A stretch of 51,019 nucleotides of DNA from contig JALSPC010000047.1 of the NCBI GenBank assembly GCA_026986155.1, positions 1-51,019 on the forward strand, read 5' to 3'. Of this stretch, positions 32,033 to 51,019 are shown in pieces; within the stretch, counting starts at the first letter, position 1, and each line of letters opens with the position of its first letter. The notes beneath the pieces were generated by a model, which saw only the letters and a program-made list of their open reading frames with translations, did no database searches and was not told the DNA's origin. This DNA comes from a bacterium. Its GTDB lineage: Bacteria > Desulfobacterota > S145-22. The position numbers and the translations under genes were made by a program.

Positions 32033-32899
32033 TTACGGCTCACCGGGCGCCTCTTCCTCCTCTTCGGGAGACTGGGTATGCTCGTTTGGGATCGCTGTTC
32101 CCGCTTCGTTCCCCTTTTGCGTGGGCGGAGTTGGCGCCGCTTCTTCGCTTCCCTCCTCTTCCTCCGCCGGCTTCCTTCCAAAAATCTTCGCCACCCAGAT
32201 ACTGATCTCGTAGAGGGCCAGAAGCGGTCCCGCCATCATCAACTGGGTCATCACATCCGGGGGAGTGAGGATGGCGGAGGCAACAAAAACGAGGAGGATG
32301 GCGTATTTCCTCTGTTTCCTCAGCATTTTATCGTTGACGAGTCCAATCCGTGAGAGAAAGAGGACCAGGAGGGGAAGCTCGAAGATGACACCGAAGGCGA
32401 AGAGGAGCTTCGCGCAGAAACCGAAGTATTCCTTGATGGTCGGCATGGGTCGGATGTAGTCGGTGGCGAATCCCAGAAAAAATTTGAACCCGAAGGGAAA
32501 GACGACGAAATAGCCGAAGAGGGCCCCGCCGATGAAGAAAATGGAGGAAAAAAAGACGAAGGGGACCACGTAGCGCTTTTCGTGCTTGTAGAGCCCCGGG
32601 GAGATAAAAGCCCACATCTCGTAGAGCACCACGGGCGAGGCGATGAAGACCCCCGCCAGGAGCGATACCTTCAGGTAGGTAAAGAAGGCCTCGGGAAGAC
32701 TGGTGAAGATGAGGGTCGACTTGGGGGGGAGGGAAACGATGAGAGGTTTCATCAGGATTTCGAAGAGCTGTTTCGAGAAAAAGTAGGAAACAAGGAAACC
32801 CGCCGCGATAGCGATGACGGAGATGATCAGCCGCCGCCGCAGTTCTTCAAGGTGTTCCGTAAAGGGAAGTTTTTTTTCTTCGTCGACGGGGGGGCTCAT
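32033..32899 (-). CDS. tatC: Twin-arginine translocase subunit TatC
   Basis: [33 protein letters not shown]. Confidence 0.95.
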
Positions 32900-33267
32900 G
32901 GGGCGGTGCCGGCGGGGGGTTTCAAGGCGTCGTTTCCTTCCGGTTCCTTCCCCTTTTCCCCGGGCGTTTGCTCCTCGGCGGGTGAGGGCGCCTCCGCGTC
33001 GCTGCCGGAAACCCCGGAAGTCTCTACCTCAACGGATGGTGCCGATTCATCGTCGGCGGTCTTCAGTTCGTTTTCGATTTTTGAACCGATATCGTCCAGC
33101 GCCAGCTCGTCGAGCCCAATGTTCTCCTTCACCTCGTCGGTGGCCTTCTTGAATTCGCGCATGGCCTTTCCCAGGTGCTTGGCAAGCTCAGGTAGGCGCT
33201 TCGGCCCGAAGATAATCAGGGCGATCACCAGGATAACAAGCAACTCTGTCATGCCGATACCGAACAT
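32896..33267 (-). CDS. tatB: Twin-arginine translocase TatB/TatA-family subunit
   Basis: [30 protein letters not shown]; long acidic tail; directly upstream of tatC. Confidence 0.8.
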
Positions 33268-38803: not shown

Positions 38804-39583
38804 ATGGGTGAACGCATCGACCTGACGGTGGAAGGCGGCGTCGCCGTCGCGACCCTTAACCGCCCCGACAAGGGCAACCCCTTCGACTGGACGAGCATCG
38901 AGGAGATGAACGCCGTCCTGGATACGGTGGAGGAGGACGACGCCATCGGGGGGCTCATCCTGACGGCCATGGGGGAGAAGTATTTCAGCGTGGGTGCCGA
39001 CATCTCCCTGATGCGGGAGATCGAGGGGAAGGCGTACGCCCGGTTTCTCTTCGCCGGGATGCGCATGTGCGAGCGGATCCAGCGCCTCAAGAAGCCGACC
39101 CTGGCCGCGGTGAACGGCTGGGCCGTGGGGGCGGGCGGCGAGGTGGCCATGGCCTGTGACCTGCGCGTCGCCACGAAGAACGCCCGGATTGGGGTGCCGG
39201 AGTTGAAGATTGGCCTCATCCCCGGCTGGGGCGGCGTCTTCCGCCTCACCCGCCTGGTAGGGCCCGCCAAGGCGATGGAGTTGGTCCTGACGGCCCAGAA
39301 CCTGCCCGCGGACGAGGCGCAACGGGTCGGACTGGTCAACCGGGTCGTGCCGCCGGGGGAACTCATGGCCGCCGCGAAGGACCTGATGGGGCGGGTCCTT
39401 GAAAACGCACCCATCGCCATCGCCTTCGCCAAGTCCATCATTTTAAGCGAGCGGGAGGTGCCCGTCGGCTTCGGCGAGACCTACGAGGCGTTAAGCAGCA
39501 TCCTGACCTTTTTGAGTCACGACGGGAAGGAAGGCATGCGGGCCTTCTTCGAGAAGCGAGCGCCGGAGTGGAAGGGGGAATAG
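38804..39583 (+). CDS. Enoyl-CoA hydratase/isomerase
   Basis: FSVGADI, AVGAGGEVAMACD, PELKIGLIPGWGG with both catalytic Glu. Confidence 0.9.
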   Translation: MGERIDLTVEGGVAVATLNRPDKGNPFDWTSIEEMNAVLDTVEEDDAIGGLILTAMGEKYFSVGADISLMREIEGKAYARFLFAGMRMCERIQRLKKPTLAAVNGWAVGAGGEVAMACDLRVATKNARIGVPELKIGLIPGWGGVFRLTRLVGPAKAMELVLTAQNLPADEAQRVGLVNRVVPPGELMAAAKDLMGRVLENAPIAIAFAKSIILSEREVPVGFGETYEALSSILTFLSHDGKEGMRAFFEKRAPEWKGE

Positions 39584-39587
39584 GGGC

Positions 39588-40760
39588 CTACGTCTCTTTC
39601 CAGAAGGTCTCCGGGTCGCGGCGCCCGCCGTATCCCAAAAGCCCGTCGATGCGAAGGAAGGCCGGGTTCAAGGCAGGCAGGCGCATGATCGCCGCCTTCG
39701 CCAGGTTGTGAATCCACCCCGCGGGCTTGTTGAAGGGGCAGACCCGGATGCAGTTCGAACAGTCCGTGCCGTTTCGGGCCCAGAAATCGAGGCAGTTTTC
39801 CGCATTGATGTGCCAGGCGTGGACGTTCCGGCGGTTGGAGATGTTGTGGGTCTCCGTGCTGGGCTCGCCGTGCATGATGGACTGGCTGGGGCACTGCTTC
39901 GCGCACAGCCCGCACTGTTGGCAGAACTCCCATACCCCGAAGGCGATGGGCCGGTCGGGCACGAGGGGCAGGTCGGTCAGCACCTTCGCCAACCGGACAC
40001 GCGGCCCGTATTCCGGGGTGATCAGCAGTCCGTTGCGCCCCAGTTCCCCCAGGCCCGCGTCGATGGCCAGCGGAATGCTGCACGCCGTGTCGTTCCCACA
40101 GGGTATCGCCTTGAAGCCCAGGCCCCGGATGAACTGCGCCAGCAGGCCCGCTACGAAGGCCATCCGGGAATATTGCAGGCCCACCGTGGCGGACGCGGGA
40201 TGGGCGGGGGAACACGCCACCGCCCCGTAGTCCATCGCGAACCCCAGCACCACGGCGTAAGCGTATTCTTCCGGTATTTCATTCTCCGCCACCTTTCCTC
40301 CTTCCGGCGTGAGGAGGTAGGCCTTGGAATAGAGCCATCGCCGGTCCAGCCGGCCAACACCCACCAGGGACGCCCCGAAAAACCGCGCGACCCGCTTCAT
40401 GTCCCGGGTGACGGCCGCCGGATCATCGGCGTCTATCTTCAGCCCCCTGGGAACGCGGGGGAAGTCGAACCGCCCGTTCCACGTCCAGTCGTAAAGGCCC
40501 GTCCGCCCGCCGCAGACCCCGCAGCCGAAATGCGATTCCAGGTGCCAGGCGGCGTTGACCACGGCCTGGTCCTTGAGGCGGTAGCCCGGCTTGTCCTTCG
40601 GGGAAACCTTGTCCTTGTAGAAGCGCTGGAAAAGGTCGCGGACCTCCGGGTCCCAGAAGGGGCGCTTGAACATCTCGTTCTTCTGGTCGAAGGGCGGGGC
40701 GTCGCCCCGGACGTAGCGGGCCGCCCCTTCATCCACCTTCCGCGGCTTGAAAAGTCTCAA
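39588..40760 (-). CDS. Reductive dehalogenase (RdhA)-like cobalamin/2x[4Fe-4S] protein without TAT signal
   Basis: K..ARFFGASLVGV, YSRM, FIRGLG.KA, SIPLAIDAGLGELGRNGLLITPEYGPRVRL, TDLPL.PD.PI.FG, FCQQCGLC..CP, CLDFW..NG.DC..C..VCPFNK; probable TTG start 40760 after GGAG. Confidence 0.85.
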   Translation of the reverse strand: MRLFKPRKVDEGAARYVRGDAPPFDQKNEMFKRPFWDPEVRDLFQRFYKDKVSPKDKPGYRLKDQAVVNAAWHLESHFGCGVCGGRTGLYDWTWNGRFDFPRVPRGLKIDADDPAAVTRDMKRVARFFGASLVGVGRLDRRWLYSKAYLLTPEGGKVAENEIPEEYAYAVVLGFAMDYGAVACSPAHPASATVGLQYSRMAFVAGLLAQFIRGLGFKAIPCGNDTACSIPLAIDAGLGELGRNGLLITPEYGPRVRLAKVLTDLPLVPDRPIAFGVWEFCQQCGLCAKQCPSQSIMHGEPSTETHNISNRRNVHAWHINAENCLDFWARNGTDCSNCIRVCPFNKPAGWIHNLAKAAIMRLPALNPAFLRIDGLLGYGGRRDPETFWKET

Positions 40761-40777
40761 CGGCAACTCCAGGCCTT

Positions 40778-41230
40778 CTACGGTTTTTGAACGGGCCAGT
40801 CCCCCGGCTTCAGGAGAACCCTCGCGAAGGTGCAGCGGGTTTCCCGCCACTCCCGGAACGTCGGCACCATGTCCCGGCACGCTTCCTGCCAGGCCACGCC
40901 GTAGCTCAACACCTTGAAAAACGCCTCGAAGTCGTAGGCGGGATTCAGGCCCCTGTCCCGCAGCGCGCGGTAGGCCGTCAGGGCCTCCGGGAACTTGTAG
41001 AGGACGAACCAGTTGAGGCGGTGCGCCTCCGGGATATCCTCGTTTTCCTCGTACCACAGGTGAATGGCCTGCTCCCGGGCGATTGTCTCCGCCTCCTCCC
41101 GGAGCATGGCGTAATCCCCGGGGTAGAAGGGGGGAGAGAGGGCCAATTTCTTGCTCTCGTTGGTCACGCACTCGGCGAAGGCGGTCATCATCCCCAGGAT
41201 GAACGCCCTCCTCTCCGCATCATTCATCAT
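40778..41230 (-). CDS. Hypothetical protein
   Basis: Start overlaps the livF stop, GAGGA upstream, ends 17 nt before the RdhA-like start; no motif recognised. Confidence 0.7.
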   Translation of the reverse strand: MMNDAERRAFILGMMTAFAECVTNESKKLALSPPFYPGDYAMLREEAETIAREQAIHLWYEENEDIPEAHRLNWFVLYKFPEALTAYRALRDRGLNPAYDFEAFFKVLSYGVAWQEACRDMVPTFREWRETRCTFARVLLKPGDWPVQKP

Positions 41231-41976
41231 ATTTCATCCTCCTCGTCTTCGTCGTCCCGGCCGCCCAGGTAGGCCTCTTTCATCATCTCGTTTTCCAGCA
41301 GGGCCCGCGCCGTGTCGTGCAGGACGATCTCCCCCGTCTGCAGGACGTAGCCCCGGTCCGCGATGGACAGGGCCATGCTCGCGTTCTGCTCCACCATGAA
41401 GATGGTGGTTCCCCGGCGATGGACCTCCTGGATGATCTCGAACTGCTGGTCCACGAGCATGGGCGACAGCCCCATGGACGGCTCGTCCATCAGGAGGATC
41501 TCGGGACGGGAGAGGAGGGCGCGTCCCATGGCGAGCATCTGCTGCTCGCCACCGCTCAGGGTGGCCCCCATCTGGTTCGCCCGTTTTCGCAAGATGGGAA
41601 ACAGGTCGAAGATGTTGTCGATCTCCCTTTTCACCTGCTCCCGGTCGCTCCGCAGGTAGGCCCCCAGCTCCAGGTTCTCCAGGACCGTCATCCTGGGGAA
41701 GATGCGGCGGTTTTCCGGGACGATGGCCACGCCCATGGCGATAATTTCCTTCGTGGGCCTGCCATTGATGCGCTTCCCCTTCAGGAAGACGCTGCCGTTT
41801 TTCACCTTGCAGGCTCCGAGGATGGTCTTCAGCGTGGTCGATTTCCCCGAGGCGTTACCGCCCAGGAGGCAGACCAGCTCCCCCGGGTAGACCTCGAAGT
41901 TGATGTCGTAGAGGACCTGGATGCTCCCGTAGTAGGCATCGATGTGCTCAAATTTTAATACCGGCTCTCTTTCCAT
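41227..41976 (-). CDS. livF: Branched-chain amino acid-type ABC transporter ATPase (LivF-like)
   Basis: GGNASGKST, VPENRRIF, LSGGEQQMLAMGRAL, DEPSMGL, EQN. Confidence 0.92.
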   Translation of the reverse strand: MEREPVLKFEHIDAYYGSIQVLYDINFEVYPGELVCLLGGNASGKSTTLKTILGACKVKNGSVFLKGKRINGRPTKEIIAMGVAIVPENRRIFPRMTVLENLELGAYLRSDREQVKREIDNIFDLFPILRKRANQMGATLSGGEQQMLAMGRALLSRPEILLMDEPSMGLSPMLVDQQFEIIQEVHRRGTTIFMVEQNASMALSIADRGYVLQTGEIVLHDTARALLENEMMKEAYLGGRDDEDEEDEI

Positions 41977-43834
41977 GTCCCTTTCGTCCCAGGTAGGCCT
42001 CGATGACCTTTTCGTTGTTGGCGACCTCGCGGTAGCGCCCCTCCGCGATCTTCACCCCGTAGTCGAGGGCGATGACCCGATCGGAGATGCGCCGGACCAG
42101 GTTCAGCTTGTGCTCGATAAGCAGGATGGTGTAGCCGTAGGCGTCCCGCAGGTGCTTGATAAACGCCGTGATCTCCTTCGTTTCCTGGGGATTCATCCCG
42201 GCGGACGGTTCGTCCAGGAGGAGGAGCCTTGGTTCCGTCATAAGGACCCGCGCGATCTCGAGGCGCCGCCGGTTGGCGTAGGAGAGATACATGGCCTGCT
42301 GGTGGTACCGATAGCCCGTGAGGCGCCCGCCGAAGAGCCCGAGGATTTCGTCCGCCTTCTTTTGGGTTTCCATCTCTTCCCGCCTGTGCCTGGGCAGGTG
42401 CAGCAGCACGGAAACAGGCCCCGCGTGCGTCCGGCAGAACCGCCCCACCCTGGCGTTGTCGAGCACGCTCATCTTGTTGAAGAGCCGGAGGTTTTGGAAG
42501 GTGCGGGCGACCCCCAGCGCGACAATGGCGTGGGGCCTCAGCCCCGTGATGTCCCGGCCCTCGAAGAGGATGCGTCCTTCCGTGGGCCTGTAGATACCGG
42601 AGACGAGGTTGAACAGGGTGGTCTTTCCCGCCCCGTTCGGGCCGATGATGCTCAGGATCTCCCGCTCGTGGAGCGTGAAACTCAGGCCGCTCAACGCCCG
42701 GATACCCCCGAAGTCCTGTGTGAGGCCCTCAACCTCGAGCAGGACCCGGCTGGTGCGGGCATACCGCACCTTGGGCGCCTTTCGCGCGGGCGCCTCCCCG
42801 CCCTCCGCGTAGTAGAGGTCCGTGGAGGCTTTCAGCACGCCGCTTTCATCCTTGTCCGGGCGTTTCTTTTTCCTCGTGAGAAAGCCTATCTCCCCGAGGA
42901 TCCCCTGGGGACGCAGCGCCATGAGGACGATCAGGACGAGGCCGTAGAACATCATCCGGTAGGCACCGTATTCCCGCAGGAACTCCGGGAGGACCGAGAG
43001 GAGGATGGCCCCCACGATGACGCCCGGAATGTTCCCCAGTCCTCCCAGGATGACCATGCAATAGACGATGACGAGCTGAGGAAAGTCGAAATTATTGGGA
43101 AAGACGGAGTCCTGGAGGGAGGCGAACAGCACCCCAGCCATCCCCGCCACGAAGGCCCCGATGGCAAAGGCCATCAGCTTCATCCGCGTGGTGTTCACGC
43201 CCACCGCCTCGGAGGCCAGTTCGTCCTCCCGTAGGGATTCCCAGCCCCGCCCGAGGCGGGACATCTTTAGTCGGTAGGCCCCGATGGTCACCAGGCAGGC
43301 GAAGAACCAGATGAGATAGGCGTAACCGACGGGCGATTCTATCTTTAGCCCGAAGATGTTGATGGGATCGAATCCGAAAATCCCGTTCACCCCTCCCGTG
43401 ATGTTGACGGGGGTATCCAGGTTGAGGAGGAGGAGCTTGAAGATCTGGGCGAAGGCGAGGGTCACGATGGCCAGGTAGTCCCCCTTCAGCCTCAGGCTCG
43501 TGGAGCCGAGGGCGATGCCCACTCCCATCGTCAGGAAGGCGGCCACGGGGAGAACCACGAGGAAAGGGAGATGGATGCCGAACTGGTCGGACGACAGGAG
43601 GGCGAAGGTGTAGCCGCCGATCCCGAAGAAGGCCACGTAGGAGAGGTCGAACAGCCCCGCGAACCCCGCCACCACGTTCAGCCCCAGGGCCAGCATCACC
43701 CAGATTCCCGTCACCAGGTAGATGCGGAGCCAGTAATCGTTGGGCATGACGTGCGGCAGGAAGATGAGGGCCGCCGCGACTGCCGCGGTGAAGGCTGCCT
43801 TTCGTTTCCCGTTCCCGACAGTCAGGGTCATCAA
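41948..43834 (-). CDS. LivM permease - LivG ATPase fusion
   Basis: LRLKGDYLAIVTLAF, REDELAS, ILGGLG, then GPNGAGKTT, ARTFQN, LLDEPSAG, IEHK, EAYLG. Confidence 0.9.
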   Translation of the reverse strand: MMTLTVGNGKRKAAFTAAVAAALIFLPHVMPNDYWLRIYLVTGIWVMLALGLNVVAGFAGLFDLSYVAFFGIGGYTFALLSSDQFGIHLPFLVVLPVAAFLTMGVGIALGSTSLRLKGDYLAIVTLAFAQIFKLLLLNLDTPVNITGGVNGIFGFDPINIFGLKIESPVGYAYLIWFFACLVTIGAYRLKMSRLGRGWESLREDELASEAVGVNTTRMKLMAFAIGAFVAGMAGVLFASLQDSVFPNNFDFPQLVIVYCMVILGGLGNIPGVIVGAILLSVLPEFLREYGAYRMMFYGLVLIVLMALRPQGILGEIGFLTRKKKRPDKDESGVLKASTDLYYAEGGEAPARKAPKVRYARTSRVLLEVEGLTQDFGGIRALSGLSFTLHEREILSIIGPNGAGKTTLFNLVSGIYRPTEGRILFEGRDITGLRPHAIVALGVARTFQNLRLFNKMSVLDNARVGRFCRTHAGPVSVLLHLPRHRREEMETQKKADEILGLFGGRLTGYRYHQQAMYLSYANRRRLEIARVLMTEPRLLLLDEPSAGMNPQETKEITAFIKHLRDAYGYTILLIEHKLNLVRRISDRVIALDYGVKIAEGRYREVANNEKVIEAYLGRKGHGKRAGIKI

Positions 43835-44763
43835 ACCTTCTCCTGAATCTTCTCACCCAGAAGCCCCGAGGGCTTGACGATGAGGATAATCACGAGGATG
43901 ACGAAGGCGACCACGTCCTTGTAGGCGGCGGGCAGGAAGGTGACGGCGAGGGACTCGGCCAGGCCGAGGATGATCCCGCCGAGCATGGCGCCGGGGATGC
44001 TCCCGATGCCCCCCAGGACGGCGGCGGTGAACCCCTTGAGCCCCGCCTGGAAACCCACGTAGTAATCGACCTGGGTGAACAAGAGTCCCACGAGGGTTCC
44101 CGCGGCCCCTCCCAGCGCCGAGCCGATGATGAAGACCAGGACGATGATCCGGTCCACGTCGATGCCGAGGAACGTGGCCATCTCCAGGTCCTGGGCGGTG
44201 GCCCGCATCGCCTTGCCCGCCTTCGTCCGCTTGATCATGATGCTCAGCAGGGCCATGAGCAGAAAGGTCACCGCGATGACGATGAGGCGGGTCAGGGTGA
44301 TGACAACCGGTCCCAGGTGGATCAGGCGGACGCTCTCCGGGATCAGGGAATGGACGTAAAAGACCCGGGCCTTCGCCCCCTGGTAGTTCAGGACCAGGTT
44401 CTGAAGGAAGATGGAAACCCCGAGGGCGCTCAAGAGGAGGTTGATGCGGGGGGCGTTCCGGAGGGGACGGTAGGCGAACCGTTCCGTCAAGACCCCGACG
44501 AAGGCGGAGACCCCCATGGCGATGACGATCATGAGGGCGATGACCACGGCGGCGTTCATCACCACCTGGTGGTTCCGGCTGAGAAGGTGCAGCACCCACC
44601 AGCCGGTAAAACCACCGATCATGTAGATCTCGCCGTGGGCGAAGTTCAGCATCCCGAGGATACCATAGACCATGGTGTATCCGATGGCGATCAAGGCGTA
44701 GACGCCGCCCAGCGTCAGGCCGTTGACCAGTTGCTGCGGTAATTCCTTCAGTAAGAGATCCAT
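43831..44763 (-). CDS. livH: LivH-like ABC permease
   Basis: QQLVNGLTLGGVYALIAIGYTMVYGIL..NFAHGE, GLKGFTAAVLGGIG. Confidence 0.92.
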   Translation of the reverse strand: MDLLLKELPQQLVNGLTLGGVYALIAIGYTMVYGILGMLNFAHGEIYMIGGFTGWWVLHLLSRNHQVVMNAAVVIALMIVIAMGVSAFVGVLTERFAYRPLRNAPRINLLLSALGVSIFLQNLVLNYQGAKARVFYVHSLIPESVRLIHLGPVVITLTRLIVIAVTFLLMALLSIMIKRTKAGKAMRATAQDLEMATFLGIDVDRIIVLVFIIGSALGGAAGTLVGLLFTQVDYYVGFQAGLKGFTAAVLGGIGSIPGAMLGGIILGLAESLAVTFLPAAYKDVVAFVILVIILIVKPSGLLGEKIQEKV

Positions 44764-44825
44764 GAACCCCGCTTTCGCCCGGGATGTCCCACGGGACGGT
44801 CCGGGCCTGCACGCGGATAGAGATA

Positions 44826-44864
44826 AAAAGGGCCCCGGCCGCCGCGAGGGGACCGGGACCCTTT
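44826..44864 (-). terminator. Hairpin between substrate-binding gene and permease (attenuating or stabilising stem)
   Basis: Minus strand aaagggtcccggtc..ggccggggccctttt. Confidence 0.5.
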
Positions 44865-44874
44865 GGCCGCTATC

Positions 44875-46065
44875 CTACTTTCCCGTCATGACGGCGACCT
44901 GCTTGAAGTCGTTTCCCACCACCTTGAAGAAGTAGGTGGCGCCGCCTTCCAGGTCTCCCTTTGCGTTGAACGTGATGGGAAAACCGAGGATTCCCTTATA
45001 GTTCTTCGTCTTGTGCAGTTCCTCCACCACTTCCTTCCGGGTAATCTTTCCGTCCGCCGCAGCGCGGTCGATGGCCGCGAGGAGGATGTTCATCGCCTCG
45101 TAGGCGGGGGGGCCGAACCCGCTGATGGTCCCGTATTTCTTTTCATACGTCTTGACGTAGCCTGCAGCCGCGGGAATGGCGTAGATGTCCGGGGCGAAGT
45201 GATAGACATACGCCCCCTCCGCCGCGCCCTCGGACGCCTGTATGAAATCCTTCTTGTCCCGGGCCCCTTCCGTTCCCAGGAAGATGGCCTTGATGCCAAG
45301 CTCCTTCATCTGCCGCACGCCGATGGCCTGGTCGGGGGCCGTCGTGGCGATGAAGAAGAGGACGTCGGGCTTGAAGGCCTTCACCTTGGTCAAAACGGGA
45401 GAGAAGTCCTTGGAGCCGCCTACGATGGTTTCCTGCATAATGTCCTTGATACCCAGTTTCTTCAGCCCCTTGATGGTCTCCTTCGCCATATTCTCGCAGT
45501 AGGCAACCTTTTCGTTGAGGACCGCCACCCGCTTCGCCTTCAGGTAGTTCTTGATGAAGAGGGCGCAGTTCCAGCCGTGGGAATCGTTCCGGGCGTTGAC
45601 CCGAAAGAAGTGCTTGTAACCCTGTTCCGTCAGGTTGGGCTTCGAGGCGGCCGTCGTGATGCAGGCCAGGTTCGCCCTGCCGTAGATCTTCAGGGTCGCC
45701 TGGGCGATGTGGCTCATGGGCGGCCCGATGACCCCGTACATGAGCTTGTCCGACACGAACTTGTGGGCCACGTTCACCCCCTGGGCGGGGTCCATGGCGT
45801 CGTCACCCATGATATGTTTCAGCTTGACCCCGTGAATCCCCCCTTTGGCGTTCCACTCGTCCAGGGCGATCTGGGCGGAGTGGAAGATCTCCATGCACGG
45901 AGAGGCGGCGTCCCCCGTGAAGGATCCCGCGTCCCCGATATGGATCTCGGTCACCTTCATGCCGGTGGAGGGGTCGATCAGCCCCGCGGCGTGCGCCCGG
46001 GCCAAAAACCCCGCGAAACAAAGAATCAACGCGATGATAAAAAACAGACGATACCCTTTCCTCAT
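44875..46065 (-). CDS. LivJ/K-like periplasmic substrate-binding protein
   Basis: Signal peptide ending AHA, NAKGGIHG, DD..DP, FFRV, KDFSPVLTKVK..PD, YEA. Confidence 0.88.
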   Translation of the reverse strand: MRKGYRLFFIIALILCFAGFLARAHAAGLIDPSTGMKVTEIHIGDAGSFTGDAASPCMEIFHSAQIALDEWNAKGGIHGVKLKHIMGDDAMDPAQGVNVAHKFVSDKLMYGVIGPPMSHIAQATLKIYGRANLACITTAASKPNLTEQGYKHFFRVNARNDSHGWNCALFIKNYLKAKRVAVLNEKVAYCENMAKETIKGLKKLGIKDIMQETIVGGSKDFSPVLTKVKAFKPDVLFFIATTAPDQAIGVRQMKELGIKAIFLGTEGARDKKDFIQASEGAAEGAYVYHFAPDIYAIPAAAGYVKTYEKKYGTISGFGPPAYEAMNILLAAIDRAAADGKITRKEVVEELHKTKNYKGILGFPITFNAKGDLEGGATYFFKVVGNDFKQVAVMTGK

Positions 46066-46148
46066 TTTATACCTCCCTTGAAACCCGGTTAAAAATTTTT
46101 ATCGAGTCTCCCTCACCTCCTTCTGCCGTTTTTTCCCGATACTTCCTT

Positions 46149-46850
46149 TCAAATACCCGAAGCCGAGAAGAAGGCCTCGTCCCGGGTGCGCTCGATCATC
46201 TTGAGGATATCCTCCTTCGCCAGTTCCAGGTGGCCCTTGATGGCCTTCTCCAGCCGGGGGAAATCCTTCGCCACGAATGCCCTGAATATCTCGTAGTGGC
46301 CGTCCCGGGTCTTGGCCGCGAATTCCAGGATGTGAATCAGGGAAATCCTGTATTTCAGGGAGTGGTCGCTCAGCGACTGGCAGATGTGCACCATGGTCTT
46401 GCTCCGCGTCGCCCGGTAGATAATGCCGTGAAAGTCCACGTCCAGCTCCGTCAGACCCTCCGCGTGGCCGCTGTCCACCTTTTCGTCCGTCATCTTGAGG
46501 TTTAATTCCATTCGTTCCAGTTCCACCGGCGTCATCTTCTCGAAGGCGAGCCGTGCCGCAAGCAGCTCGATTTCCAGGCGAATGGTGAACAGGTCCTGGA
46601 TGTCGTAGTCCGACATCTCCTCCACGATGTAGCCCGCCCTGGGGATGGAATAGAGGAAACCCTCCACGGCAAGCCGGTGAAGGGCCTCCCGGACCGGTGT
46701 GCGGCTGACCTTCATCTCCCCCGCGAGCGCCGATTCCACCAGGCGGGTGCCCCCGGCAATCTTTCCGGTAATGATCTTGTTTCGAAGGGTCTGGTAGACC
46801 TGCTCGACCAGGGTATCCTCGTTCCGCCGCGTCGCCTTTAGCACCTTCAT
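46149..46850 (-). CDS. GntR/FCD transcriptional regulator
   Basis: VYQTLR..I..G...GTRL.E..LA....VSRTPVREAL, DFH; start likely ATG 46850 (ORF open to 46892). Confidence 0.9.
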   Translation of the reverse strand: MKVLKATRRNEDTLVEQVYQTLRNKIITGKIAGGTRLVESALAGEMKVSRTPVREALHRLAVEGFLYSIPRAGYIVEEMSDYDIQDLFTIRLEIELLAARLAFEKMTPVELERMELNLKMTDEKVDSGHAEGLTELDVDFHGIIYRATRSKTMVHICQSLSDHSLKYRISLIHILEFAAKTRDGHYEIFRAFVAKDFPRLEKAIKGHLELAKEDILKMIERTRDEAFFSASGI

Positions 46851-46889
46851 GTCTTTCGGCTCCCTGTAACAGTGTTTGCATTCCACTAC

Positions 46890-46904
46890 CATACCAGTTG
46901 TATG
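46890..46904. promoter_or_regulatory. Candidate GntR operator
   Basis: CATAC-cagtt-GTATG inverted repeat next to a minus-strand TTGACA (46911-46906); CATACCA recurs at 46989-46995 overlapping a plus-strand TTGACA (46985-46990). Confidence 0.5.
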
Positions 46905-47049
46905 TTGTCAATATTGGCCCACTGGAATTTTCCTACTACAACAGTTAAAATCACGGAACAGGTAGGAACAGATATGAAATACTATTGACATACCAATTAT
47001 TTTTTGTTACGAAGGTGCAAATTCAAACGCGTTTTCAAGCGGGGTTAAC

Positions 47050-47331
47050 ATGGTCACACTCAAGGTCACGGTCGAACACATCGACGGCTATTGCAATCAG
47101 CCCCTCCTGGTGGGCGACAGTTTCCTCGTGAAGGGCGGGGAAATCCACGTTCCGTCCGGAAAACATGTCTGCATGTGGGCCCTCCAGAGCATGATGCCCA
47201 TCTTCCCCCTCCTCCAGCGGGCGGAGCCGAAGGCGGGCGACTGGACGGGCAAGGCGGGCCAGATCTTCGTCTGCCCCGATCCGAAAGGAAAGGTCCATTT
47301 CCGTATCGAACGCGCGGGGGACGCGCCATGA
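47050..47331 (+). CDS. TIGR04076-like small Cys protein
   Basis: G.C....VGD.F, C.WA, CPDP..V.F.IER. Confidence 0.75.
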   Translation: MVTLKVTVEHIDGYCNQPLLVGDSFLVKGGEIHVPSGKHVCMWALQSMMPIFPLLQRAEPKAGDWTGKAGQIFVCPDPKGKVHFRIERAGDAP

Positions 47332-47849
47332 TCGTCGTGGACGCCGCCAAGTGCTCCGGATGCAGCCGCTGCGAGGTGGCGTGTTCCTTCTTCCATTCGG
47401 GAAAGGTGGGGCGCGCCGGTTCCCGCGTCAAGGTCGTCAAGATGGAAGAGTTCGGGATCGACTTTCCCGTCGTCTGCCAGCACTGCGTGGAGCGTTACTG
47501 CGTCAAGTGCCCGGAGCACGCCATCGAGATCGGCCCCCTGGGGCAGGTCATCGTCTCTCCCACCCTCTGCACCACCTGCGGCGCCTGCGAGGCCCTCTGC
47601 CCCATCGGCGCCATCGAGCTCTTCGAGGAGATCCCCTACGTCTGCGACCTGTGCGGGGGGAACCCCCGATGCGTGAAGGCCTGCACCCTCGACGCCATCC
47701 GGTACGAACCGGAAACCACGGGGAACGTTTCCCTCGAGACATTCCGTAAAAAATCGAAAAACCTGACCCCGGAGGAAAAACGCGTCCGGTTCGCCCTGAC
47801 GCGATTCGAGCCTATCCGGGAAACCTGGCTATCCAAGAGGAGGGCGTAA
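47328..47849 (+). CDS. 4Fe-4S dicluster protein (AOR electron-transfer subunit)
   Basis: CSGCSRCEVAC, CQHC...C..CP, CTTCGACEALCP, CDLC..PRCVKAC; ATG overlaps upstream TGA. Confidence 0.88.
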   Translation: MIVVDAAKCSGCSRCEVACSFFHSGKVGRAGSRVKVVKMEEFGIDFPVVCQHCVERYCVKCPEHAIEIGPLGQVIVSPTLCTTCGACEALCPIGAIELFEEIPYVCDLCGGNPRCVKACTLDAIRYEPETTGNVSLETFRKKSKNLTPEEKRVRFALTRFEPIRETWLSKRRA

Positions 47850-47852
47850 CCC

Positions 47853-49670
47853 ATGCTTCACGGCTACGGCGGTTTCATCCTGCGGGTCGATCTGACGTCC
47901 GGGCGCGTCCGTCGGGAAAAGACCGATCCCGCCTACATGCTCAAGACCATCGGCGGCAGGGGCCTCAATTCCACCCGGCTCTTCGAAGAACTGAAACGTG
48001 ACGTGGATCCCCTCTCGCCGGAAAACATGCTCCTCTTCGGCGTCGGCCCTCTCACGGGGACGCTCCTTCCCGCCTCGGCCTACACCACCATCACCGGGAA
48101 GTCCCCCCTGACGGGGATCCTGGGAGACTCCGCCGCGGGGGGATTTTTCGGGACGGAACTGAAACAAGCGGGATACGACCAGGTCATTGTCACGGGAAGA
48201 AGCGAGACCCCCTGTTACCTTCTCGTCACCAACGACACCGTCGAAATCCGCGACGCGGGCCACCTATGGGGAAGGGACATCTGGGAAACCACCGCCGCGC
48301 TGCGCAGGGAATTGGGCGACAACGCCGTCCAGGTGGCGGCCATCGGGCCGGCGGGGGAGAATCTCGTCAAGTTCGCCACGGTGGCCTGCAACAATTCCCG
48401 CACGTTCGGCCGCACGGGCATGGGGTGCATCTTCGGGTCGAAGAACCTCAAGGCCATCGTGGTGCGGGGCACGAGGCGTGTCACCATTGCCGACACGCTC
48501 CGGTTCGCCGATCTCTGCCGGAAGCTAGAGGCCGACATCTTGAATCACCCCGAATACGAACAGCGCCACGCCCTGGGCTCCACGCTTCTCATGAAGGCCC
48601 TCCAGGGTATCGGCATCCTTCCCACGCGGCATTTCCAGGAAGGGTTGTGCGACTACGTGGACGAGATCAGCGGGGAGACCCTGGCGGAGCGCTACAAGGT
48701 GAAGAACAAGTCGTGCTTCAACTGTAACATCCACTGCTCCCGTTACTTCATCACCCCCACGCACGAGGGAGAAGGGCCAGAATACGAGACCCTCTGCAGC
48801 TACACCTCCCGGCTCGGGAACCGGGACCTGGAATTCGCCCTGAGGATGACCACCTTTCTCAACCGGATGGGGATCGATTCCCTGAGCTCGGGCGAGACGA
48901 TCGGCTGGGCCATGGAGTGTGCCCAGCGGGGGCTTTTGACGCGGGAGGACTTAGACGGGCTCGACTTCACCTGGGGCAACACGCAAACCATCGAGAAAAT
49001 CCTCCGGATGATCGTTCACCGGGAGGGCCTCGGGGACGCCTTTGCCGAGGGGACTCGCAGCCTGGCACGGCGCTTCGGCAAGGGGACGGAGAACTACGCC
49101 TTCCACGTGAAAGGGCTCGACATGATCTGCGGGGATCCGCGCGGCATCAAGGCCTTCGGCCTGACCTACGCCATCGCCTCCCGGGGCGGTGACCACCTCC
49201 GGGCGGAACCTTTCTTCGAACTGACCGAGCGCTACGACGAGGCGGAGCGGCGCTGGGGCATCCGGGAGATCGCCGACCGTCTCGCCGTGAAGGGGAAGGC
49301 CGTCCTGGTGGAGCACACGGAGCGGCAGGCCCTCATCTCTGACTGCCTGACCATGTGCAAGAACATCGGTTTGAGCATGGACTTGATGGACGTCGACTTC
49401 GCCGCCCGGCTTCTCACCGCCGGCACGGGTCTCAAGTTCACGCCGGAACGGGTGGACGACGCCCTCAAGGGCGTCATCGAGCGCGACCGCCTCCTCAACA
49501 TCGACTTCGGCATCGACGCCGGCCAGGATACATTGCCGGAACGCTTCCGGAAGGAGCCCCTCGCGGAGGGCGCCTCCAAGGGCCAGACGGTGCCCGTCGA
49601 GGAGATGGTCCAGGAATACTACCGGCTCAAGGGATGGGACGAACGGGGCGTTCCCAGGGGACGGGCGTAG
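47853..49670 (+). CDS. aor: Aldehyde:ferredoxin oxidoreductase family (tungstopterin) enzyme
   Basis: LRVDLT, GGRGL, GPLTG, KSPLTG, IGPAGENLV, GRTGMG..FGSKNLKA, CFNCNIHC, GPEYET, RGGDH, DTLPERF, EYY..KGWD..G.P. Confidence 0.92.
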   Translation: MLHGYGGFILRVDLTSGRVRREKTDPAYMLKTIGGRGLNSTRLFEELKRDVDPLSPENMLLFGVGPLTGTLLPASAYTTITGKSPLTGILGDSAAGGFFGTELKQAGYDQVIVTGRSETPCYLLVTNDTVEIRDAGHLWGRDIWETTAALRRELGDNAVQVAAIGPAGENLVKFATVACNNSRTFGRTGMGCIFGSKNLKAIVVRGTRRVTIADTLRFADLCRKLEADILNHPEYEQRHALGSTLLMKALQGIGILPTRHFQEGLCDYVDEISGETLAERYKVKNKSCFNCNIHCSRYFITPTHEGEGPEYETLCSYTSRLGNRDLEFALRMTTFLNRMGIDSLSSGETIGWAMECAQRGLLTREDLDGLDFTWGNTQTIEKILRMIVHREGLGDAFAEGTRSLARRFGKGTENYAFHVKGLDMICGDPRGIKAFGLTYAIASRGGDHLRAEPFFELTERYDEAERRWGIREIADRLAVKGKAVLVEHTERQALISDCLTMCKNIGLSMDLMDVDFAARLLTAGTGLKFTPERVDDALKGVIERDRLLNIDFGIDAGQDTLPERFRKEPLAEGASKGQTVPVEEMVQEYYRLKGWDERGVPRGRA

Positions 49671-49671
49671 G

Positions 49672-50409
49672 ATGGGGCGCGTCGTCCGGGGCGGCACCAC
49701 CACCTACGGCCAGGTGGCCGGAATCCTGATGACCGAATCCACCATTCCGCGGATCCCCGGGGATCCGGGCCACGCCGAGACCTTCGATTTCCCCGTCCGT
49801 TACGCCGTCATCGAGGATTTTCCCTTCGAAGACCTCGTCCAGGTCAAACGTGATCACCTGGACACAGTCATCGCGGCGGCCCTTTCCCTCCAGCGGGAGG
49901 GGGTTCGTTTCATCGTCGCCGATTGCGGCCTCTTCGCCCCTTTTCAGCGGGAGATCGCCGACCGGCTGGAGATCCCCTTCCTCGGCTCCGCCCTCTCCCT
50001 CCTGCCGCTCATCGCCGCGTTTCTCCCCGCGAAGAAGAAAATCGGCGTTATCACGGGCGACACGCGCCTCCTGAAGGACGTCCACCTGACCTCGACCGGG
50101 GCCGACCTGGGACGCCTCGTCATCCGGGGACTGGACGACTGCGGGGAATTCCAGAAGGTGGTGGTCAACCGCGGCAATGAATTGAACGTGGACGCCATGC
50201 GGGCGTGTGTTTTGGAGGCCGGCGCTTCCCTCTTCGAGGCCGGCGAGCCGGTGGGGGCCATCCTGCTCGAGTGCACGAACCTGGCGAGCTTTCGCCGCGA
50301 CCTCCAGGGAAGGTTTCGCGTCCCCGTTTTCGATATCGTGAGCCTCGTCGACTTCTTCGCCGGGGGATACCGGTTGCGGTCCTTCGCGTCCGCCTTCTTG
50401 CCCCGTTAG
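49672..50409 (+). CDS. Asp/Glu/hydantoin racemase-like protein
   Basis: GILM....PRIPGD.G...TF.FPV, ADCG, LLECTNL, PVFDI (two-Cys pattern). Confidence 0.8.
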   Translation: MGRVVRGGTTTYGQVAGILMTESTIPRIPGDPGHAETFDFPVRYAVIEDFPFEDLVQVKRDHLDTVIAAALSLQREGVRFIVADCGLFAPFQREIADRLEIPFLGSALSLLPLIAAFLPAKKKIGVITGDTRLLKDVHLTSTGADLGRLVIRGLDDCGEFQKVVVNRGNELNVDAMRACVLEAGASLFEAGEPVGAILLECTNLASFRRDLQGRFRVPVFDIVSLVDFFAGGYRLRSFASAFLPR

Positions 50410-50503
50410 GCGGCCAACCCTTATCACCGAATTTACTTTCCCCCGGTGAGCCCCGGGAGTCTCAGCAAAGAGCCATCGACGCCCGGCGGACCCAAGTTTT
50501 TCA

Positions 50504-50532
50504 TTGACTAAACGGGTTATTTGTCTTAGTAT
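50504..50532 (+). promoter_or_regulatory. Putative sigma70 promoter of gyrA
   Basis: TTGACT (50504-50509), 17 nt, TAGTAT (50527-50532). Confidence 0.5.
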
Positions 50533-50570
50533 GATAGGGTTTAGAGTCCTATTCAAAAGGAGGCCGCACC

Positions 50571-51019
50571 ATCCAGAACACCATTCCCACGCCCGTTAAT
50601 ATCGAAGACGAAATGAAGCGCTCCTACATGGATTACGCCATGAGCGTGATCATGGGGCGCGCCCTCCCCGACGCGCGGGACGGGCTCAAGCCCGTCCACC
50701 GCCGGATCATCTACGCCATGTACAAGATGGGGAACTTCTGGAACAAGGAGTTCAAGAAGTCCGCCAGGGTCGTCGGGGACGTGATCGGCAAATACCATCC
50801 CCACGGCGACGCGGCCGTCTATGACGCCATCGTCCGCATGGCCCAGGATTTCTCCCTCCGTTATCCCCTGGTGAACGGCCAGGGCAACTTCGGCTCCATC
50901 GACGGGGATCCCCCCGCCGCCATGCGTTACACGGAGGTGCGGCTCACGCGGCTTGCCCACCTGCTTCTCGAGGACATCGAGAAGGACACGGTCGATTTCG
51001 TGCCCAACTACGACGCGAC
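50571..51019 (+). CDS. gyrA: DNA gyrase subunit A (3' truncated by window edge)
   Basis: [73 protein letters not shown]. Confidence 0.93.

Follow-up and report, generated by a model that had tools for sequence, protein, structure and literature searches.

Why a gene for a protein of the reductive dehalogenase (RdhA) family should stand at the end of an operon for an amino-acid-type importer, back to back with an operon for an aldehyde oxidoreductase (AOR), is the question raised by contig JALSPC010000047.1 of GenBank assembly GCA_026986155.1 (Desulfobacterota, lineage S145-22). The window referred to throughout is the whole of this 51,019-nucleotide stretch, and the block of interest lies at positions 39588–50409. 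An earlier note had read the block as an undescribed cytoplasmic pathway that imports an amino-acid-like, possibly halogenated compound, reduces it with the RdhA-like enzyme and draws low-potential electrons from the AOR. Comparison with other genomes and metagenomes shows that the importer and AOR arms are truly linked, beyond this genome, and that the RdhA gene falls outside the conserved cassette as an accessory, added in this genome. The reading favoured here is that the RdhA-like protein may serve as an accessory cytoplasmic dehalogenase acting on the imported solute, added to a conserved importer–AOR cassette; a probability of about 0.5 is assigned to it.

All 11 genes named in the earlier note were found in the places and order given there by listing of open reading frames (ORFs) and by family scans, so that its account of the gene content of both arms is borne out. 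The genes and the two conserved blocks of the control region are as follows.

39588–40766, minus strand: RdhA-like gene; TIGR02486 match; last gene of the importer arm, with its stop at 39588
40778–41230, minus strand: hyp150 (150 residues); no Pfam or NCBIfam match
41227–41976, minus strand: LivF-type ATP-binding cassette (ABC) ATPase; ABC_tran 102.5 bits; top NCBIfam match LivF, 265.3 bits versus an equivalog cut-off of 441
41948–43834, minus strand: LivM–LivG fusion (permease and ATPase); BPD_transp_2 at residues 36–304, ABC_tran at 381–544, BCA_ABC_TP_C at 595–617
43831–44763, minus strand: LivH-type permease; BPD_transp_2 162.2 bits
44875–46065, minus strand: LivJ-type periplasmic binding protein; Peripla_BP_6 156.3 bits
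46149–46892, minus strand: GntR/FCD (FadR-type) regulator; GntR 62.6 bits (N-terminal winged helix) and FCD 83.8 bits (C-terminal)
46884–46913, no strand: control block 1, CACTAnCATAyyA...GTATGTTGTCAATA; contains the first CATACCA; kept in four genomes
46975–46996, no strand: control block 2, ATACTATTGACATACyAA; contains TTGACA and the second CATACCA; kept in four genomes
47050–47331, plus strand: TIGR04076 small protein; 76.6 bits, cut-off 33
47328–47849, plus strand: AorA-like polyferredoxin (173 residues); Fer4 families; start ATG overlapping the stop codon of TIGR04076
47853–49670, plus strand: AOR; AFOR_N 256.4 bits and AFOR_C 375.7 bits
49672–50409, plus strand: two-cysteine protein of the Asp/Glu-racemase superfamily (PRK07475 type); PF01177 41.5 bits, cut-off 31

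Conservation of the importer–AOR cassette

The cassette recurs in related genomes of the same family at 72–89% protein identity. In G006 the order hyp150–livF–livMG–livH–livJ–gntR, divergent from TIGR04076–polyferredoxin–AOR–racemase-like, is kept at 74–89% identity, and the same order is present in G002 on a contig that cuts it at both ends. What can be seen in G004, to the limit of the contig, is gntR divergent from the four genes of the AOR arm, and in G005, to the limit of the fetched stretch, livJ–gntR divergent from TIGR04076–polyferredoxin–AOR.

A scan with hyp150 as the query yielded 40 metagenome loci. LIV genes adjoin hyp150 in 17 of them, and TIGR04076–polyferredoxin–AOR is present in all seven of the LIV-linked loci with enough DNA past livJ, on the same strand as the LIV genes in L127, L128, L134, L135 and L140 and divergent from them in L131 and L132. 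The order TIGR04076–polyferredoxin–AOR–livJ–livH–livMG–livF–hyp150 runs along a single strand in L127, L134, L135 and L140. A racemase-like gene lies convergent past hyp150 in 8 of the 11 LIV-linked loci with a readable flank. The synteny of the two arms, to which the earlier note had pointed as a check, was thus found in four related genomes and many metagenome contigs. No paper on an AOR/LIV/hyp150/racemase cassette was found in the literature.

The RdhA gene outside the conserved core

G006, the only relative with a readable flank, has no RdhA gene at the orthologous position, where a convergent pdxA-like gene follows hyp150. None is present in the LIV-linked metagenome loci with a readable flank either (0/11); an RdhA homologue (46% identity), convergent to hyp150, occurs only in L137, which lacks LIV genes. 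Within the genus the RdhA homologues are only 66% identical and lie on other contigs, and the AOR orthologues are 81–87% identical. The claim that the RdhA-like enzyme belongs to one pathway unit with the two arms is not supported by this comparison.

The block is bordered on the left by a convergent crotonase–SDR–crotonase operon that ends at 39583 and on the right by gyrA, which starts at 50613; the stop codons of RdhA and of the convergent crotonase gene ECH2 are 4 bp apart. In G002, of the same genus, a crotonase gene (89% identity) is followed by gyrA (98%) within about 200 bp, and the gyrA promoter region aligns with the window from about position 50525. With the crotonase gene directly before gyrA in G002, the whole 10.9-kb block, RdhA included, is an indel here. 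The block of G006 lies between pdxA-like and isocitrate-dehydrogenase-like genes (both recognized by eye, not by family search). No flanking repeats were seen in the alignment of the ECH2/gyrA junction (no search was aimed at repeats), and the GC profile shows no compositional break at either block edge.

Contigs of a separate study (run X2) span 39291–40241 (crotonase to RdhA), 40410–41120 (RdhA to hyp150) and 44652–50904 (livJ to gyrA); since they bridge these joints, the adjacency is not an artefact or chimera of assembly. One low-depth X2 contig lacks a single base within the RdhA gene at window position 40630, which could be an assembly error or a frameshift variant. A look for RNA runs containing the stretch turned up none.

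Sequence and class of the RdhA-like protein

The protein scores 234.7 bits against the reductive dehalogenase (RDH) model TIGR02486 (cut-off 160.35) and 25.9 bits against PF13486 (cut-off 24.3). Its nearest solved structures in a phmmer search are those of PceA (8q4h, 6.3e-66; 4uqu, 8.1e-62), followed by NpRdhA (1.2e-33) and QueG (5d08, 3.4e-8). Identity with the epoxyqueuosine reductase QueG was rejected, the score against TIGR00276 being 47.6 bits versus a cut-off of 200 and that against the RDH model lying far above its cut-off; a separate, weak QueG-like match is present on contig C121 of the same genome. The earlier note had named two outcomes as contrary to it, grouping of the protein with QueG and arms that are never syntenic, and since the protein is not QueG and the arms are syntenic elsewhere, neither applies.

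Both Fe–S motifs that the earlier note had described are present: CxxCxxCxxxCP at residue 287 (CQQCGLCAKQCP) and CxxCxxxCP at residue 341 (CSNCIRVCP). In the alignment with 4uqu, Tyr246 and Arg305 of Sulfurospirillum multivorans PceA (SmPceA) fall on a tyrosine and an arginine of the protein, and SmPceA Asn272, which we take to be a functional residue as well, is aligned too. Tyr246 and Arg305 are catalytic, with roles in dehalogenation given in the available part of PMC10624902.

The features that would place the protein at the membrane are absent. No twin-arginine motif (RRx[FGAVML][LITMVF]) occurs anywhere in it, and it contains no membrane helix or hydrophobic span, the maximum 19-residue hydropathy being 1.43 overall and −0.29 at the N-terminus. 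The domain scan found neither a reductase domain nor a vestigial second cobalamin-type domain. Neither neighbour resembles an RdhB anchor: the hydropathy of hyp150 peaks at 0.73 and its model is globular, and the other neighbour is a crotonase. ORFs resembling tatA and tatC are present in the window at 32033–33267 (recognized by eye, not by family search), so that the lack of a twin-arginine translocation (TAT) signal probably does not reflect a missing pathway. The motif, hydropathy and domain scans thus agree with the earlier note in finding no TAT peptide, anchor or fused reductase, and by its sequence the protein is a cytoplasmic member of the RdhA family.

Translation probably begins at a TTG at 40766 or 40760, behind AGAAGG/GGAG, to give 390–392 residues, in agreement with the starts of homologues. 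The longest RdhA ORF (to 41171) overlaps hyp150, and its codon at 40781 is GTA, which is not a start codon. The RdhA gene would then start 11–17 nt past the TAG of hyp150, and as the terminator scan found no terminator-like site in this gap, the two genes are probably co-transcribed; terminator-like sites are not enriched overall (13 versus 10.2 in shuffled sequence).

The same genome encodes further RdhA paralogues. One on C18 (C18:1-3970) is 31% identical, is cut by the contig end and lies directly behind DctP–DctM; others are found on C71 and C122.

Comparison with known systems

RdhA proteins without a TAT signal or RdhB are described in the available text of PMC4959651 from marine Dehalococcoidia (DEH-C11) and Desulfobacula toluolica Tol2, where facilitated fermentation, detoxification or pre-catabolic dehalogenation is proposed for them, and PMC6129605, as far as available, reports cytoplasmic RdhA in Desulfatiglans single cells. 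A 'simplified cytosolic type' with a mean length of 395 residues, from Desulfobacterota and Chloroflexota, is set out in the accessible part of PMC12219181. The portions of these three papers at hand report no assay for a TAT-less cytoplasmic RdhA. The present protein resembles the TAT-less RdhA of PMC4959651 and the simplified cytosolic type of PMC12219181, as there described, in lacking TAT signal, RdhB and fused reductase, in keeping both Fe–S motifs, in its length (about 395 residues in those proteins) and in its origin among Desulfobacterota and Chloroflexota of anoxic sediments. By length, domains and taxa it belongs to this TAT-less, RdhB-less and reductase-less clade, and the earlier word 'undescribed' is overstated in view of what the available text of PMC12219181 and PMC4959651 contains. 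A difference is that the portions of these papers at hand place the clade beside the NpRdhA group, whereas PceA (6.3e-66) is a closer match to the present protein than NpRdhA (1.2e-33), as judged by phmmer only.

Like the respiratory PceA enzymes of S. multivorans and Desulfitobacterium hafniense (4uqu, 8q4h), which match it best over the C-terminal ~220 residues, the protein carries the Fe–S motifs and the equivalents of Tyr246 and Arg305. Unlike them, it has no TAT signal or RdhB gene, has a shorter N-terminus and is encoded within an importer operon. It shares a cytoplasmic location with the catabolic NpRdhA (4ras, 6zxu) and BhbA of Comamonas 7D-2, which presumably open up a halogenated acid to catabolic breakdown. 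Those enzymes are aerobic and oxygen-tolerant proteins of about 700 residues with a vestigial second cobalamin-type domain and, in some cases, a fused NAD(P)H reductase, in contrast to the 390–392 residues, missing reductase domain and weaker match (1.2e-33) of the present protein. BhbA is linked to a TRAP (tripartite ATP-independent periplasmic) importer. QueG belongs to the same cobalamin/Fe–S superfamily, although the protein fails the QueG model.

RdhA homologues beside other importers

A scan of genome contigs returned 82 relatives of the RdhA-like protein, of which 80 loci were kept; the best relative is 68% identical. Their records are mostly of Desulfobacterales/Thermodesulfobacteriota, with others from Dehalococcoidia, Actinomycetota, Aminicenantes and archaea, and an exhaustive search of representative proteins gave 517 matches at E<=1e-30. 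ORFs in the fetched loci were called by a crude longest-ORF rule on GC-rich DNA, so that neighbour counts are lower bounds; the RdhA ORF itself was lost in 6 of the 80 loci, leaving 74 callable.

Among clustered ORFs the commonest neighbours of the homologues are ABC ATPases, LivH/M and LivJ, together with the TRAP components DctP, DctQ and DctM. An immediate co-directional LIV or TRAP neighbour is present in 17 of the 74 loci, and a LIV or TRAP gene lies within 6 kb in 26 of the 80. Transporter genes make up 15–17% of ORFs within 4 kb of the homologues versus about 5% at 4–10 kb. In G002 and G003 the 66% identical homologue stands directly behind a different LIV operon. Other recurrent neighbours are class-III aminotransferase, RidA, FAD-linked oxidase, 2-oxoacid:ferredoxin oxidoreductase and molybdopterin oxidoreductase, and further ones are aldehyde dehydrogenase, class-I amidotransferase/peptidase-C26-like proteins, C–N hydrolase, Old Yellow Enzyme and M20 peptidase. 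Only three of the 80 loci (L024, L073 and L074) have an AOR gene within 10 kb of the RdhA homologue; the dedicated AOR-to-RdhA route proposed in the earlier note is therefore without comparative support.

Few syntenic genes are reported in the available text of Wasmund et al., in contrast to the importer gene next door in 17/74 loci here. The Fig. 4B legend of PMC12219181, within the part available, lists 'transport-related' genes beside RdhA-like genes. No paper on importer adjacency of cytoplasmic RdhA was found; the supplements of PMC12219181 (Tables S7 and S11), which lie outside the part available, may bear on it.

Importer arm and hyp150

The importer arm encodes a complete ABC importer of the LIV/HAAT type, with a Peripla_BP_6 protein, two BPD_transp_2 permeases and two ATPases, and its LivM–LivG fusion is kept in relatives. 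The nearest solved structures to the LivJ-type protein are Escherichia coli LivK and LivJ and the amino-acid-binding 3ipc (8e-37 to 4.5e-34), in keeping with the amino-acid-type importer first proposed. All of the LIV proteins score under the E. coli equivalog cut-offs, so that an amino-acid-type specificity is putative. Of the residues that we take to be the ligand contacts of LivJ, Ser79, Ala100, Tyr150 and Glu226 are kept, Thr102 is replaced by serine, and Tyr18 and Tyr202 differ.

The hyp150 family comprises at least 203 homologues of 139–173 residues, all of them unnamed and without a Pfam domain, among which Glu20, Cys21, Glu25 and Lys27 are invariant in the alignment. An AlphaFold2 model (pLDDT 87.4, pTM 0.81) gave no PDB match at E<=0.001 in Foldseek, and the ESM Atlas offered no usable feature match, the only matches having TM<0.5 and involving a poor Atlas model. 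A role for hyp150 as an RdhB-like anchor was rejected: it has no hydrophobic span, its model is globular and it is present where RdhA is absent. By synteny, hyp150 accompanies the importer genes and the racemase-like gene.

Two further settings of hyp150 were seen. In L114–L125, L133 and L137 a MarR–GNAT fusion and an EamA-type carrier precede hyp150, which is followed by a PHP-domain protein, a class-I/II aminotransferase and a glyoxalase. In L146:4363-14318 RidA, a class-V aminotransferase, two NhaC-like carriers, a racemase-like gene and hyp150 are followed by a lysine-2,3-aminomutase-like radical-SAM protein, two ATP-grasp ligases and a GNAT protein; this setting, with its different, NhaC-like transporter, ties the racemase-like/hyp150 pair to amino-acid-type metabolism.

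AOR arm

The AOR is nearest to Pyrococcus furiosus AOR (1aor, 5.3e-125), followed by 8c0z_A (4.1e-95), FOR (1.7e-91) and BamB (1e-70). A reading as a BamB-type benzoyl-CoA reductase was rejected on the difference between 5.3e-125 and 1e-70, and the GAPOR model scores only 50.3 bits versus a cut-off of 1300. By its domains and nearest characterized relative the enzyme is an AOR proper. The nearest solved chain to the polyferredoxin is the Fe–S subunit of an AOR (8c0z_C, 3.6e-25), and the arrangement resembles AorABC of Aromatoleum aromaticum (8c0z) and P. furiosus AOR (1aor) in having a catalytic subunit with an AorA-like polyferredoxin just before it. It differs from AorABC in that no AorC-type FAD subunit is encoded within the block (the rest of the genome was not searched for one) and in that TIGR04076 and racemase-like genes flank it instead. 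AOR-family genes are unusually numerous, with about ten loci in this 2.7-Mb genome and 5–9 matches in each of five relatives.

Within the phylum, 50 of 151 genomes carry a TIGR04076 gene. Of 30 such loci fetched (L161–L190, with flanks of 1.5 kb only), 9 have an AOR-family gene next to it or close by, and there are hints of an AOR-accessory role for the small protein. It matched only its own family in the ESM Atlas, and the literature found on TIGR04076 goes no further than a guessed redox role.

The racemase-like protein is barely over the cut-off of NF005679 (232 versus 231 bits) and its best match to a solved structure has only E=0.063. Asp84–Cys85–Gly86 and Glu200–Cys201 are invariant in four of four aligned sequences, both cysteines (Cys85 and Cys201) being kept. 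In L126, L128, L130 and L134 the racemase-like match past hyp150 is in two overlapping pieces (36–39% identity), as if frameshifted or decaying.

Control region

The arms had been described as sharing a 200-bp control region with repeated CATACCA. The repeat stands: the window contains five copies against 2.06 expected, and two of the five, at 46890–46896 and 46989–46995, lie in the spacer, both inside the blocks conserved in four genomes. The length holds only with a shorter regulator, the spacer being 157 bp by the longest gntR ORF and, with a gntR start at Met15 (46850), about 199 bp. This later start is probably the true one, because conserved block 1 covers the upstream ATG, with the longest gntR ORF starting inside it. 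The promoter scan missed the conserved TTGACA of block 2.

Possible function and alternative explanations

In the favoured reading the LIV importer would take up an amino-acid-like solute, the racemase-like enzyme and hyp150 would interconvert or prepare it, and the AOR would oxidize a derived aldehyde and pass electrons to ferredoxin, steps suggested by family membership and synteny; the GntR/FCD regulator would control both parts of this core. The RdhA-like enzyme would remove halogen reductively, in the cytoplasm, from the imported solute or a variant of it, ahead of ordinary catabolism. Its electrons would come from the general pool of reduced ferredoxin, which the AOR may feed without being a dedicated partner. 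Dehalogenation of the imported solute is the most likely role because members of the clade recur at the ends of LIV and TRAP importer operons. Several points weigh against this account. The core contains no aminotransferase or decarboxylase to yield an aldehyde, so that the AOR step is a guess. Two of the seven presumed LivJ ligand residues differ. No LIV or TRAP gene was found within 6 kb in 48 of the 74 callable homologue loci (by the crude ORF calling), and the LIV proteins beside other homologues are only 21–49% identical to those of this locus, so that a common substrate cannot be inferred. Finally, RdhA lies at a synteny breakpoint, the block being absent between ECH2 and gyrA in G002, and a rearrangement could have put the gene there by chance.

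This last point can be taken further, to an RdhA gene that is a passenger put at the edge of the cassette by rearrangement, with the cassette serving ordinary amino-acid or aldehyde catabolism. The exact breakpoint position, the 4 bp between the convergent stop codons, the indel relative to G002 and the completeness of the cassette without RdhA elsewhere all fit such an origin. Set against them are the 11–17-nt gap with Shine–Dalgarno-like sequences and no terminator-like site, and the independent occurrence of clade members behind other importers, with two cases in this genome family and a further one in the present genome; a passenger gene is thought unlikely. Nearer to the original proposal would be one dedicated route in which importer, RdhA and AOR together reduce a halogenated amino-acid-like compound with AOR-specific electrons carried by ferredoxin. 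All of the genes do lie in one GntR-controlled block here, the arms are syntenic elsewhere, and it is established that an AOR with an AorA-like ferredoxin would give electrons of fittingly low potential. This route is nevertheless judged quite improbable, given that neither G006 nor any of the 11 readable LIV-linked metagenome loci has RdhA in the cassette, that an AOR gene is so seldom near RdhA homologues (3/80) and that other homologues are accompanied instead by genes for 2-oxoacid:ferredoxin oxidoreductase, molybdopterin oxidoreductase or FAD-oxidase.

The chemistry itself could also differ from dehalogenation, the RdhA-like fold and cofactors being used for another cobalamin/Fe–S reduction of nitrogen-containing acids supplied by LIV or TRAP importers. 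Among the genes in the operons of its nearest homologues are those for RidA, class-III aminotransferase, aldehyde dehydrogenase, an amidotransferase-like protein, C–N hydrolase, Old Yellow Enzyme and M20 peptidase, which point to amino-acid or amine catabolism over classic organohalide substrates, and QueG is an established precedent in the superfamily for non-halogen chemistry. The retained equivalents of SmPceA Tyr246 and Arg305 and a score well over the RDH cut-off speak for a dehalogenase, as does the combination of C–N hydrolase, TRAP importer and RdhA, which recalls the bromoxynil route reported for Comamonas 7D-2 and mentioned in PMC12219181 and PMC4959651, and the non-dehalogenase explanation is considered rather unlikely. 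That the protein is QueG itself has a negligible probability: the common Fe–S/cobalamin superfamily and the weak matches (47.6 bits; 5d08) speak for it, but the score is far under the QueG cut-off and far over that of RDH, with a separate QueG-like match available on C121. Accessory dehalogenation of an imported solute remains the preferred reading.

Implications

The idea of the AOR as electron donor, the most striking element of the earlier note, gained no support from the comparison, so that the finding is useful but incremental. Conserved yet unstudied, the TIGR04076–AorA–AOR–LIV–hyp150–racemase cassette includes the unannotated hyp150, without a solved fold relative. Marine sediment genomes are rich in genes for cytoplasmic RdhA-like proteins, and the importer adjacency (17/74) offers a concrete handle on their function: the neighbouring LivJ- and DctP-type binding proteins can be screened, and each ligand would nominate an RdhA substrate.

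A wider and doubtful proposal is that the TAT-less RdhA clade of about 390 residues consists of importer-coupled cytoplasmic reductases on LIV and TRAP operons, which might act on natural metabolites of amino-acid, amine or acid type, halogenated or otherwise modified, in anoxic sediments, with AOR, 2-oxoacid oxidoreductases or similar enzymes providing the reduced ferredoxin, one member being attached here to a previously undescribed TIGR04076–AorA–AOR/LIV/hyp150/racemase cassette. If true, the importer-coupled clade would add a third physiological mode to the two of RdhA in respiration and in NAD(P)H-driven aerobic catabolism.

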